Shown: positions 37,426 to 39,870 of the stretch, one piece after another
Layout of the letters: each line of letters begins with the position of its first letter
Position numbering within the stretch: the first letter of the stretch is position 1
Origin: a virus
Taxonomy: Duplodnaviria; Heunggongvirae; Uroviricota; Caudoviricetes
Virus record (IMG/VR): IMGVR_UViG_2718218360_000017
Direction: 5' to 3' (one strand)
Length of the DNA stretch: 43,496 nt
Translations under genes and position numbers: made by a program
The notes under the pieces: generated by a model
Seen by the model: only the letters and a program-made list of their open reading frames with translations
Databases searched by the model: none
What the model was told of the DNA's origin: nothing

Positions 37426-38054
37426 GCGAAATTAATTACCAGGCACTGCGTGAGGCGGCGGAACGTGCAATTCCAGCAATGGAACGCCTGTTAATGTTGC
37501 CAGCTGATGATGATTTGTTAAGTGAACAGGAACTTAAAGATTACGGTGTGGATATTGATGCGCTCAACGCCTTCAAATTTCTGGCCGGACCAGAAACCGT
37601 GCTGGCACTACTGGATGAACGGGAAAGGAACCAGCAATACATCAAATCCCGCGACCAGGAGAACGAGGATATTGCGCTTACGGTTGGGAAGCTGAGAGTT
37701 GAGCTTGAGGAGACAAAATCAAAACTCAACGAGCAGCGTGAGTATTACGAAGGTGTTATCTCGGATGGGAGTAAGCGCATTGCTGAACTGGAGGAGCGGG
37801 AAATAAAACCAGCCAAAGGTGAAGTTCTGGTCGTTGTATCTGGTTTTACTGGTTGCGGAAAAAGCGCCATTGCCGGGGAAATAGAAATCGCGATGAAGGC
37901 TATTGGTGTACCGGTTAAGTGGACTAATGGCGATGCAGAAAAGCGCATGACTGGCGCTGACTGGCTGACTGCGATTGAGATGTACAAACCAACTGTGCGC
38001 ATCGTGGAAGTTAATGTGCCACGCGCCCCTGGCATTCGCATCAAAGGAGAGTGA
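37422..38054 (+). CDS. Ea22-like early protein
   Basis: 210 aa, MSEINYQALREAAE...LDERERNQQYIKSRDQENEDIALTVGKLRVELEETKSKLNEQREYYEGVISDGSKRIAELE..IRIKGE. Confidence 0.65.
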   Translation: MSEINYQALREAAERAIPAMERLLMLPADDDLLSEQELKDYGVDIDALNAFKFLAGPETVLALLDERERNQQYIKSRDQENEDIALTVGKLRVELEETKSKLNEQREYYEGVISDGSKRIAELEEREIKPAKGEVLVVVSGFTGCGKSAIAGEIEIAMKAIGVPVKWTNGDAEKRMTGADWLTAIEMYKPTVRIVEVNVPRAPGIRIKGE

Positions 38055-38055
38055 T

Positions 38056-38265
38056 ATGGCTATCGCTGCAAGTTACACCATGCATCTCTATTGTGACTGC
38101 CGCCAGTGTACGGAAGGTGTATATCCAGTGCCAGACTTCGGTGAGTATATCGGTACGTCATGGTCTGGTTGTGCAAAAGAGGCCCGTAAAGACGGGTGGC
38201 GAATAAGTAAAGACAAAACACGTGCTTTTGCGCCCGGGCATAAAGTTTTGAGGATTAACAAATGA
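38056..38265 (+). CDS. Small Cys-containing protein (possible zinc-binding), function unknown
   Basis: Internal ATG after RBS aaaggagagtgat; C-x-C-x2-C...C pattern. Confidence 0.45.
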   Translation: MAIAASYTMHLYCDCRQCTEGVYPVPDFGEYIGTSWSGCAKEARKDGWRISKDKTRAFAPGHKVLRINK

Positions 38266-38624
38266 CCACTATTACCAAAGAACGTATCGAATTATTCATT
38301 AAAAATCCGCTTGATAACGGGCTTACCCGTGGCGAACAAATGGAACTGGCACGAATTGCGCTGGCATCACTGGAAGCCGAACCGGTTGCAGTAAACGACG
38401 ACATGGCTTACGCATTCCATCACGCATTGTCAGATTCATCGCTAGGCGCTGATGAAGTAGAGGAAATTAAGGCCGGTTTGCGTGCTGCCTTTGCCAACGT
38501 CACTATCCAACCAGAGCCGGTAGTGCCGGATGAAATCGATCCAGACGATAGCAATACGTTTGATTATGTTGATGGCTGGAACGCCTGCCGCGCTGCCATG
38601 CTTCAGGGTAAGGGAGGTGAGTAA
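38262..38624 (+). CDS. Acidic early protein, paralog A of a duplicated family
   Basis: MTTITKER..ELARIALASLEAEP..VVPD..GWNACRAAMLQG; paralogous to 39499..39870. Confidence 0.55.
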   Translation: MTTITKERIELFIKNPLDNGLTRGEQMELARIALASLEAEPVAVNDDMAYAFHHALSDSSLGADEVEEIKAGLRAAFANVTIQPEPVVPDEIDPDDSNTFDYVDGWNACRAAMLQGKGGE

Positions 38625-38800
38625 TGCGTGTGGCATTTTTCGGCTTGTTACCGTACCCGACTCGTTTTTGGGCTTCTGCGCTAATTGCAAAGCCACATGT
38701 CCTGATGGCTGACAACATCATCCCGGCACCAAAGCGCCGCCATACCGGTATTGCAGCGGCACGACGAGCAGCAAAGAGACGCAGGAGAGCAAAGCGATGA
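38624..38800 (+). CDS. Candidate 58-aa protein with Arg-rich C-terminus (..APKRRHTGIAAARRAAKRRRRAKR)
   Basis: Hand translation, no in-frame stops; ATG overlaps the upstream stop (TAATG) and its stop overlaps the next ATG (ATGA); below the track cut-off. Confidence 0.35.
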   Translation: MRVAFFGLLPYPTRFWASALIAKPHVLMADNIIPAPKRRHTGIAAARRAAKRRRRAKR

Positions 38801-38985
38801 AAAACCGTAAAGCAAAGATTCTGTTAGTTCGTAGAAACGCTCCTGGCGTCTGGCAGTGGGTGAGACTCAGCAACCGACGGATGGGGTTGATGAAATATTA
38901 CGGGATGATGGATTGTGGTTTTTGCAAAAAGCCCAGCGCGGCGCAAAACCGCTGGAAAAACCACTTGCGCACTAAAGGAGAGTGA
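38797..38985 (+). CDS. Small basic protein (62 aa), function unknown
   Basis: Track ORF; overlapping start and stop with neighbours. Confidence 0.4.
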   Translation: MKNRKAKILLVRRNAPGVWQWVRLSNRRMGLMKYYGMMDCGFCKKPSAAQNRWKNHLRTKGE

Positions 38986-38986
38986 T

Positions 38987-39502
38987 ATGGCGTTAACACA
39001 CCGCGAACTCTGTCAGATTGCGTATAAGTTCCTTAAGCGCAACGGGTTCAAGGTTTGTTTTCATGACCGCTTTATAGCTGTAACCAGTACCGGAGAACAG
39101 CCAGATGCTATGGGATTCAGAAATTCAGCATCATGCCTGATAGAGGCGAAGTGTTCTCGTGCTGACTTGTTGGCAGATAGAAAAAAGCGTTTTCGTAAAA
39201 ATCCATCTCTTGGAATGGGCGACTGGCGATTCTTTATTAGTGAGCCGGGAATTATTTCAGTTGAGGATTTACCACCTGGCTGGGGATTACTTCACGTTGT
39301 TAACGGAAGAGTACGGAAAGTACATGGGTGGCCCAAGGGTAATTGCTGTTGGGGTAATCCTGACGATAAGCCATTTACTGGAAATAAGCAGGTTGAATGC
39401 GATTACATGTTATCTGCATTAAGGCGCATGGAGTTGAGAGGGCACCTTAATGAAATATATGACGGTGTAATTGTTAATAAGAAAGAAGGAAACGCGGCAT
39501 GA
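38987..39502 (+). CDS. PD-(D/E)XK nuclease-fold protein (possibly MmcB-like)
   Basis: ..EQPDAMGF..(8)..CLIEAKCS.. fits PD..(D/E)xK; ATG after RBS aaaggagagtgat (track ORF extends upstream). Confidence 0.45.
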   Translation: MALTHRELCQIAYKFLKRNGFKVCFHDRFIAVTSTGEQPDAMGFRNSASCLIEAKCSRADLLADRKKRFRKNPSLGMGDWRFFISEPGIISVEDLPPGWGLLHVVNGRVRKVHGWPKGNCCWGNPDDKPFTGNKQVECDYMLSALRRMELRGHLNEIYDGVIVNKKEGNAA

Positions 39503-39870
39503 TCACTATTACCAAAGAGCGACTGCTGACAATCAAGCAGTGGCGCGAAACATACGGACCGGGTAGCAACGTTGTACTGCCAGCAGAAGAAGCGGAAGAA
39601 CTGGCACGAATTGCTCTGGCATCGCTGGAAGCAGAACCGATAGCGTGGGAATGCGGTGAAAACATAATCCTGTTTAACCCTGACACAGTTGAAGCATACG
39701 CAAAACGTGCGGAAATATCACCTAAACCACTATTCTCCGCGCCGCCAGCGCTGGTAGTGCCTGATAAGTTGCCGCGTGAATACAGAAACGGTTGGCCTCT
39801 TGCGTATAGTGATTATGCTGAAGGCTGGAACGACTGCCGCGAAGCCATGCTTCAGGGAGATAAATCATGA
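39499..39870 (+). CDS. Early protein, paralog B of the duplicated family
   Basis: MITITKER..ELARIALASLEAEP..VVPD..GWNDCREAMLQG. Confidence 0.55.
   Translation: MITITKERLLTIKQWRETYGPGSNVVLPAEEAEELARIALASLEAEPIAWECGENIILFNPDTVEAYAKRAEISPKPLFSAPPALVVPDKLPREYRNGWPLAYSDYAEGWNDCREAMLQGDKS

Follow-up and report, generated by a model that had tools for sequence, protein, structure and literature searches.

The DNA analysed here, referred to throughout as the window, is the whole 43,496-nt stretch of IMG/VR record IMGVR_UViG_2718218360_000017, which is a lambdoid prophage of the Stx-phage type. Two features of its early accessory operon are considered: a short string, termed the joint, that recurs at two gene junctions, and a pair of related genes of about 120 codons, termed paralogs A and B. 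The original prediction had described a ribosome-binding segment repeated before positions 38056 and 38987, had called the genes at 38262..38624 and 39499..39870 paralogs, and had read the whole as an internal duplication or recombination module of an early-left operon, in which the acidic paralogs could be alternative specificity variants, for example anti-defence proteins. The elements that carry the argument are given below, where J0 to J3 denote stretches of DNA similarity between A and B (anchors).

38037..38060, + strand: joint copy 1, CGCATCAAAGGAGAGTGATATGGC, holding a Shine-Dalgarno sequence, the TGA stop of the Ea22-like gene and the ATG at 38056
38968..38991, + strand: joint copy 2, CGCACTAAAGGAGAGTGATATGGC, holding a Shine-Dalgarno sequence, the TGA stop of a 62-aa open reading frame (ORF) and the ATG at 38987
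38056..38986, + strand: four-gene cassette (69 aa, A, 58 aa, 62 aa) of 931 bp, bounded by the two joint copies
38262..38624, + strand: paralog A, 120 aa, isoelectric point (pI) 4.28; N-leader of type a (as in P22 EaA), helical middle NDDMAYAFHH, C module EPDDSNTFDYVD, GWNACRAAMLQG helix
39499..39870, + strand: paralog B, 123 aa, pI 4.64; N-leader of type b, alpha/beta middle WECGENIILF, C module KLPREYRNGWPLAYSDY, GWNDCREAMLQG helix
38262..38284 (A) and 39499..39521 (B), + strand: anchor J0, MTTITKER, 23 nt, 91% identity
38343..38389 (A, ELARIALASLEAEPV) and 39598..39644 (B), + strand: anchor J1, ELARIALASLEAEP, 47 nt, 89% identity, a cluster of mosaic breakpoints
38511..38531 (A, PEPVVPD, Pro-rich linker) and 39745..39765 (B), + strand: anchor J2, P.VVPD, 21 nt, 86% identity
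38561..38608 (A, DYVDGWNACRAAMLQG, C-terminal helix) and 39810..39857 (B), + strand: anchor J3, DY..GWN.CR.AMLQG, 48 nt, 90% identity

The repeated joint and the genes it connects

The repeated segment noticed earlier proved to be an exact 18-nt repeat, AAAGGAGAGTGATATGGC, with exactly two copies in the window (38043-38060 and 38974-38991, both on the + strand); none would be expected by chance, and 100 shuffles that preserved dinucleotide composition contained none. With flanking positions included, the similarity reaches 24 nt (38037-38060 / 38968-38991; 92% identity), and at both copies the downstream ATG lies 1 nt past the upstream stop. The 69-aa and 171-aa genes, which follow copies 1 and 2, respectively, gave no alignment with each other at E ≤ 100. 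In the P1-like phage JL22 the Ea22 gene leads directly into the 171-aa gene across a single joint copy, and this junction is made up of the left flank of copy 1 and the right flank of copy 2, while a plasmid match (H34) has the two flanks of the cassette 320 bp apart. Since the single-copy connection of Ea22 to the 171-aa gene recurs in many relatives, we read 38056-38986 as a 931-bp, four-gene insertion/deletion cassette.

The joint was surveyed, allowing one mismatch at most, in 166 fetched loci (160 IMG/VR contigs and six reference stretches) together with the window, and was found to link 29 distinct combinations of upstream tail and downstream head. The main junctions were as follows:

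Ea22 gene to 171-aa gene: 25 loci
62-aa gene to 171-aa gene: 11 loci
Ea22 gene to 69-aa gene: 8 loci
62-aa gene to 69-aa gene, the opposite of the order in the window: 3 loci

Other junctions run from Ea22 to EaA-family genes, or from the tails of EaA-family genes (..AMLQGKGE-stop) to other genes. In 5,426 complete E. coli genomes, the arrangement of Ea22, cassette and 171-aa gene was found in 31, and pieces of the region matched 1,949, at up to eight places per genome.

These data bear on the duplication half of the original prediction, which would hold that a block of ribosome-binding site, small gene and EaA-like gene was duplicated in tandem in situ and then diverged. Two collinear direct units are indeed present, each opening with the 18-nt joint and each with an EaA-family gene, and the patches that they share are spaced at 1234-1255 nt. 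The first genes of the units are nevertheless unrelated, the units differ in gene number, cassette-less forms are the commoner ones in the sample (25 loci with Ea22 joined to the 171-aa gene against 8 with Ea22 joined to the 69-aa gene) and, of the 5,426 E. coli genomes, only the 31 mentioned above have the arrangement. No whole unit can be aligned, only the joint and four patches. Further evidence against this history comes from the paralogs themselves and is presented below.

Two observations were made on relatives of this region. The block of Ea22, the 171-aa gene and the EaA leader (37422-39640) is present at 96-97% identity in the P1-like phage-plasmids JL22 (L002) and RCS47 and in P1 variants (H19-H23), which would imply recent exchange between lambdoid prophages and punaviruses; these two groups have been reported to have no recent mosaics in common (PMC3945230). 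In locus L009 (IMGVR_UViG_2537562191_000021), the gene order is 58, 62, 69, A, 58, 62, 171, so that the pair of 58-aa and 62-aa genes occurs once before and once after the 69-aa gene and A; in this relative, a unit of two genes may truly have been duplicated locally.

Paralogs A and B as combinations of modules

That A and B are paralogs was borne out by BLASTP (E = 6e-17, 38% identity, 30% gaps), and the motifs pointed out before (TITKER, ELARIALASLEAEP, VVPD and GWN.CR.AMLQG) correspond to four collinear patches of DNA similarity (21-48 nt, 86-91% identity), between which the pairwise alignment detects no similarity; the segments between J1 and J2 gave no alignment even at E ≤ 100. In the four patches, the same codon is used for 28 of the 36 degenerate codons at which A and B specify the same amino acid, compared to 12.7 expected from independent draws from the operon's own codon usage, and the observed value was reached in none of 200,000 simulations. 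The excess therefore points to recent nucleotide ancestry in common, or to homogenisation, and codon identity of this kind beside unalignable DNA is what mosaic recombination, as opposed to ancient paralogy, would leave.

The AlphaFold2 (AF2) models of the two proteins, built on alignments of 56 (A) and 55 (B) sequences, consist of separate small elements and have low pTM. For A (pLDDT 73, pTM 0.37), five helices are predicted, with hairpins at residues 6-14/23-39 and 46-56/63-78, disorder at 79-102 and a helix at 103-117. For B (overall pLDDT 78, pTM 0.46), the model has a hairpin at 6-19/29-44, a small alpha/beta unit at 49-78 (pLDDT 85-91), a disordered Pro-rich linker and a C-terminal helix at 105-118. 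The leader and the C-terminal helix would thus be common to both proteins; given that nothing aligns between J1 and J2 and that the middles are predicted to fold differently, we regard the middle domains as non-homologous.

From their leaders and their position, and in a comparison that covered 160 viral contigs and 240 homologous protein clusters, we assign A and B to the family of EaA (phage P22) and YfdT (E. coli K-12 CPS-53). Both start with M-(T/S/I)-T-(I/F/L)-T-(K/D)-E and pass through a helical hairpin (AF2 helix-loop-helix at residues 6-39 in A and 6-44 in B) to an end of the form (I)AL(A/V)SLE(A/V)EP, and both lie in an early-left accessory string between the immunity/recombination genes and xis-int, as is likewise the case in P22, CPS-53 and YYZ-2008. 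The leader family has no Pfam model and is covered by PHROGs 5117, 60, 660 and 3323; phrog_5117 matches B with E = 5.7e-41 and A with E = 2.4e-12, and phrog_60, phrog_660 and phrog_3323 match both. Each paralog has around 3,000 homologous 90%-identity clusters (Escherichia, Shigella, Salmonella, Enterobacter), most of them with partial query coverage and many fused to DUF551 or to an Ea22 N-terminus, and in many relatives a DUF551 module is joined in frame past J3. A relative cluster 76% identical to B is named 'Eaa protein' in UniRef. A species-level genome scan returned four loci (E. coli, Shigella, Raoultella, Scandinavium), a figure with little bearing on the breadth of the family as only Mi-module patterns were used.

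Reading the sequences gave an architecture of slots: an N-leader of at least eight types (start M-T-T-I/F-T-K/D-E, end ..ALASLEAEP), a middle module of at least six types, a PLYAAPPxPVVPD linker, a C module of at least eight types and a GWNxCRxAMLQG helix, after which the protein either stops or continues into a tail (DUF551 variants or others). When 242 proteins were typed by slot, more than 70 combinations of N, M, C and tail were counted. Leaders Na and Nb each occur with middles Mi and Mii, and middles Miii and Miv each occur with C modules Cb and Cg, so that all four combinations are seen at each of two seams and reassortment is required. Hybrids include a B leader with an A middle (P0016, P0028, P0039), an A-type leader with the middle and C module of B (P0138-P0141) and a protein with the A and B middles in tandem (P0044). 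All modules of A and B recur at 93-100% identity in genomes that combine them differently. The direct product of an A x B deletion (69-aa gene, hybrid Na-Mii-Cb, DUF551) was not present in that exact context among the 160 loci; the Na-Mii-Cb combination itself does occur, in P0138-P0141. These findings complete the case against tandem duplication with subsequent divergence, since A and B have middles that neither align nor agree in predicted secondary structure and since each module exists elsewhere in other company, and we consider such an origin very improbable.

The boundaries of homology were then compared with the positions of the anchors. Window positions 35400-40500 were searched by local BLASTN against the fetched loci, and high-scoring segment pairs (HSPs) of at least 93% identity and at least 80 nt were retained for breakpoints; since the loci had been picked for their similarity to A or B and some of the prophages among them are redundant, counts refer to loci and not to independent events. 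Short conserved islands were J1 and J3 of both paralogs, two motifs of DUF551 and the start of Ea22. HSP ends cluster in A at 38262, 38282-84, 38343-38390, 38527-39 and 38605-09, in B at 39495-99, 39513-15, 39607-46, 39753-56 and 39855-57, and at the joint at 38037-43 and 38968-74. The HSPs that bear a leader stop inside J1 and those that bear a middle begin inside J1, and the anchor itself is therefore taken to be the crossover zone. The joint and J0-J3 thus behave as the mosaic boundaries known as linkers: one short sequence lies between varied module pairs, and homology breakpoints coincide with it. Recombination, the other half of the earlier reading, is supported by this pattern as well as by the many gene pairs that the joint connects, whereas the duplication half is not, with neither the 69-aa and 171-aa genes nor the A and B middles being related.

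Genes bounded by a common short sequence and showing combinatorial diversity could also be the work of a dedicated site-specific system acting on the repeats, such as a shufflon, integron-like cassettes or a diversity-generating retroelement. The repeats in the window, however, are direct and consist of plain Shine-Dalgarno, stop and start sequence, there are no meaningful inverted repeats flanking the modules, and the anchors differ by 9-14% between copies, unlike the core sites of recombinases. No invertase, integron integrase or reverse transcriptase was detected with Pfam, PHROGs and NCBIfam among the scanned operon proteins of 36057-40444 (a set that did not include the yfdR product, the DUF4752 ORF or the integrase at 42273-43496). 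We regard the involvement of such a system as hardly conceivable.

Annotation of the mosaic genes in databases showed some peculiarities. In an E. coli E2863 prophage, PGAP calls paralog A a truncated pseudogene consisting of its first 126 nt only (L163 6363-6488) and the 171-aa gene 'frameshifted' (L163 7088-7266), while both ORFs are intact in the window; these calls are probably an artefact of mosaic reference proteins, because the phrog_9263 profile fuses the 62-aa and 171-aa proteins. Relatives of A (P0004, P0031, P0006) have implausible names, e.g., 'dTDP-6-deoxy-L-hexose 3-O-methyltransferase' and 'allantoicase', which are probably annotation errors spread via shared modules.

Layout of the early operon and its neighbours

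Positions 35419-43496 of the window match the prophage of the bovine E. coli E2863 without gaps at 99.7% identity, and the integration site of that prophage adjoins yjjG-rimI-holD. The late genes of the window are on the - strand. On the + strand, a string of 13 genes extends from a pL-like promoter match just downstream of a cI-like gene to an excisionase-like gene, in the order yfdR-like HD phosphohydrolase, 116-aa ORF, DUF4752 ORF, 244-aa ORF, Ead/Ea22-like gene, 69-aa ORF, A, 58-aa ORF, 62-aa ORF, 171-aa ORF, B, DUF551 gene and excisionase-like gene. All 12 junctions between these genes overlap (ATGA, GTGA, TAATG) or have a 1-nt spacer, and no convincing + strand terminator was found within the operon. 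The pL-like match, the 12 tight junctions and the excisionase-like gene at the end make the 'early-left operon' proposed earlier a plausible assignment. Features of this region other than A and B are:

34343-34996: cI-like ORF of the LexA family
35083..35112, + strand: pL-like sigma-70 promoter match TTGACA-18-TACATT at the head of the accessory operon (a consensus match only)
37422..38054, + strand: Ead/Ea22-like gene, 210 aa, Pfam PF13935 at E = 7e-38; its last codons (..IRIKGE-stop) lie inside joint copy 1
38056..38265, + strand: 69-aa basic Cys-rich ORF, phrog_926, the first gene past joint copy 1
38624..38800, + strand: 58-aa very basic ORF, phrog_13831
38797..38985, + strand: 62-aa basic ORF, phrog_1380; its end (..LRTKGE-stop) lies within joint copy 2
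38987..39502, + strand: 171-aa ORF, phrog_9263/631, the first gene past joint copy 2
39867..40229, + strand: DUF551 gene, Pfam PF04448 at E = 1.8e-16
40229..40444, + strand: excisionase/AlpA-like helix-turn-helix gene, the last of the operon, with weak Xis matches

The 171-aa ORF has a D..EAK motif, read from the sequence, that resembles those of PD-(D/E)xK nucleases, and the DUF551 gene holds two more conserved islands (~39990-40049 and ~40170-40259). The hexamer pair TTGACA-18-TACATT recurs at 34308-34279 on the - strand, upstream of a cro-like gene; the cI-like and cro-like genes thus have identical pairs on either side that point away from each other, an arrangement expected of pL and pR.

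A second repeated seam of 27 nt (89% identity) was observed at 36381-36407 and 37399-37425. It encodes a C-terminal tail, (Q)(I/L)RKG..Q-stop, that is common to the otherwise different 116-aa and 244-aa ORFs, and each copy overlaps the next start codon (GTGA). In the 116-aa ORF (36057-36407), the first 36 residues are identical to the N-terminus of E. coli K-12 YfdS (L164 9512-9874) and the rest differs; YfdS, unlike this ORF, runs on into DUF551, so that directly downstream of yfdR there is another sub-genic mosaic.

Between the excisionase-like gene and the integrase (42273-43496, - strand) lies a 408-aa gene (40675-41901, + strand) of low GC content (~36%), which matches an anti-phage dGTPase family (PADLOC PDLC02374, E = 8e-105; TIGR01353, 313 bits) and has the look of a defence moron that the prophage carries at its att-proximal end. 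The Rfam scan of the whole window gave no match in 35000-41000; in the late-regulatory region of the prophage it returned the anti-GcvB small RNA (sRNA) AgvB (26258-26319, + strand, 96.5 bits), the sRNA STnc100 (26320-26513, - strand, 144.7 bits) and a tRNA (26600-26659, - strand).

Probable mosaic evolution, possible functions and known systems

Taken together, we consider it quite probable that the repeated joint and the paralogous genes were left behind by modular (mosaic) evolution in a lambdoid prophage's early accessory operon and do not form a functional duplicated unit. Mosaicism with conserved seams is an already known kind of phage evolution, and current understanding is unchanged by this case. 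Exchange would take place at two levels, with whole genes and cassettes moving at the KGE-stop/Shine-Dalgarno/ATG joint and sub-genic modules at J0-J3. The 18-24-nt string would serve as a universal translational-coupling joint, in which the codons for K-G-E-stop hold the Shine-Dalgarno sequence of the downstream gene, and because many unrelated genes of the pool carry it, the joint would supply the short homology for insertion, deletion and re-ordering of genes or cassettes. A and B would accordingly be seen as combinatorial variants of small acidic early proteins, composed of a helical-hairpin N-leader, a variable domain, a Pro-rich linker, a C-terminal helix and an optional tail (DUF551 or other), with J0-J3, conserved between them at the codon level, acting as intragenic crossover points. 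The exchange would presumably proceed by homologous or homeologous recombination, catalysed by RecA or by Rad52-type recombinases of phages, when lambdoid and P1-like elements co-infect a cell or reside in it together; Rad52-like phage recombinases, and RecA less so, recombine short diverged sequences (PMC3945230). Two kinds of selection likely help to preserve these sequences: on the encoded protein in the case of the anchors, and on translational coupling in that of the joint.

Several points weigh against this interpretation. The breakpoint pattern is a population-level argument from loci selected by homology to A or B, and near-identical prophages may account for many of these. At the anchors, the encoded peptide itself is conserved (helix end, Pro linker and C-terminal helix), in part through selection on the protein, and the joint of Shine-Dalgarno, stop and start is functionally constrained as well. 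Reassortment is not free at every seam, as Mi was never seen with Cb, nor Mii with Ca, in the sample of 242 proteins. Finally, the early operon of the window yielded no identifiable gene for a recombinase of the Red/RecT type.

As to function, the A, B, 69-, 58-, 62- and 171-aa ORFs had no match in Pfam, NCBIfam or PADLOC, and their PHROGs matches were limited to families of unknown function. Neither A nor B matched the DUF551 model (PF04448, ..PDGWISCSERMP...HWMPLPEPP) at a Pfam threshold of E ≤ 0.1, and neither carries the N-terminal coiled-coil of Ead/Ea22 (PF13935). No PDB sequence was matched at E ≤ 1 by profiles from alignments A1 and A2, and a Foldseek search of the A model, the pTM of which is low, against BFVD returned no match below E = 0.77. 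Both paralogs are acidic, as had been stated, but acidity alone is not diagnostic of a DNA mimic or an anti-defence protein, and the suggestion that they act in anti-defence found no support from families, solved structures or folds: anti-restriction, anti-CRISPR and DNA-mimic proteins (ArdA, Ocr, KlcA, Acr) gave no match in Pfam (E ≤ 0.1), PDB (E ≤ 1) or BFVD (E ≤ 0.001), in searches that included no dedicated anti-defence library. The related idea of alternative specificity variants fits the conserved termini and swappable middles. The early accessory position, acidity and hypervariability of A and B suggest that they bind host or phage proteins, and, as a working guess, we would place them among the non-essential binders of the ea / exo-xis class, with the swappable middle determining the partner. 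Our literature search on EaA, DUF551 and yfdT retrieved no functional study of the EaA/YfdT family beyond PMC4776307, which reported that multicopy yfdQ and yfdR together with yfdS or yfdT inhibit initiation at oriC in K-12 and that YfdR binds DnaA. For Ea22, whose gene also lies in the early accessory region, a pro-lysogenic effect and mosaic, acidic C-terminal domains have been described (PMC10834534).

Such functional considerations lead to an account that partly overlaps with mosaic evolution, namely that the shared sequences are kept purely by functional selection, that A and B are paralogous specificity variants, possibly for anti-defence or host takeover, and that recombination is incidental. 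The joint, after all, couples a Shine-Dalgarno sequence, a stop and an ATG in an operon where every junction overlaps or is within 1 nt, the patches fall on defined structural elements of the AF2 models, the proteins are acidic and encoded early, and the family is hypervariable, as expected of an arms race; in K-12, moreover, overexpressed YfdT substitutes for YfdS in the YfdQR-dependent inhibition of oriC initiation (PMC4776307). On the other hand, the codon identity of the patches is far above what conservation of the amino acids needs, point-mutational divergence cannot yield discrete module types in all four combinations, the searches showed no similarity to Pfam, NCBIfam or PADLOC families or to solved structures, and the window, although it has yfdR, lacks the yfdQ that the K-12 effect needs. 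We judge purely functional selection, with recombination as an incidental matter, to be unlikely, if still deserving of consideration.

Mosaic evolution, as favoured here, could be extended to the notion that the EaA/YfdT family is a natural combinatorial library, in which J0-J3 and the KGE-stop joint are kept at the nucleotide level because they promote recombination. We put this forward as a decidedly speculative proposal that is probably wrong. If it were true, lambdoid and P1-like elements could rapidly reshuffle the small target-binding domains of an early effector, directed at the host or at its defences, without a dedicated recombinase, as an early-gene counterpart of the exchange of tail-fibre cassettes.

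Irrespective of that proposal, the locus is a clear example of sub-genic mosaicism, with four crossover anchors in a gene of ~120 codons and one Shine-Dalgarno-stop-start joint common to many unrelated genes. Homology-based annotation fails on such mosaic genes, as seen in the PGAP calls on A and the 171-aa gene and in the implausible names of relatives. In pathogenic E. coli, prophages and P1-like phage-plasmids that reside in one cell could use the anchors as substrates for recombination with each other. The family also joins P22 EaA, K-12 YfdT and the Ea22/DUF551 proteins in one module pool, so that the function of one module becomes traceable across thousands of prophages. As far as the literature we searched extends, neither the slot structure of the EaA/YfdT family nor its link between EaA, YfdT and Ea22/DUF551 has an earlier description.

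The closest known systems differ in how much of this architecture they have in common with A and B. EaA of P22 (NP_059588, 317 aa), encoded in the 'ea' region between the recombination genes and xis and listed as of unknown function (PMC4837284), has the N-leader type of A (88% identity over residues 1-42, E = 2e-22), and the first 23 nt of its gene, i.e., anchor J0, are identical to those of A. It has the same position and orientation relative to xis/int and a J2-like PLYAAPPVP motif; at 317 aa, however, it carries other middles and a C-terminal DUF551 and lacks NDDMAYAFHH, WECGENIILF and the GWN.CR.AML helix. EaD of P22 ends in ..KVKGE-stop, like the genes at the joint. YfdT of K-12 CPS-53 (b2363, 101 aa) lies downstream of yfdR and upstream of the xis-like torI, in a position like that of A and B, and combines an N-leader of type c with J1 (IALVSLEVEP). 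Its leader is 86% identical to that of P0020, the rest of which consists of the middle and C modules of A, whereas YfdT itself is unrelated to A and B past J1, and its direct similarity to B is restricted to J1 (E = 0.009).

The mosaic Ea22 variants of Stx phages resemble A and B in being acidic, modular proteins from the same operon region with swapped C-terminal domains, including DUF551 (PMC10834534), and some Ea22-type proteins hold the middle and C modules of A (P0032, P0051) or the leader and middle of B (P0177). Unlike these variants, A and B are without the PF13935 signature, and the pro-lysogenic effect is known for Ea22. More broadly, the short conserved boundary or 'linker' sequences of lambdoid mosaicism are an older concept (summarised in PMC3029335), and exchanged fragments smaller than a gene have been reported to be frequent (PMC3945230). 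The present locus is like these linkers in having short conserved sequences exactly at module boundaries and high-identity segments flanked by homology of lower identity; it is unlike them in that the anchors, known here from sequence comparison, lie inside coding sequence, at four or more positions per gene of ~120 codons.

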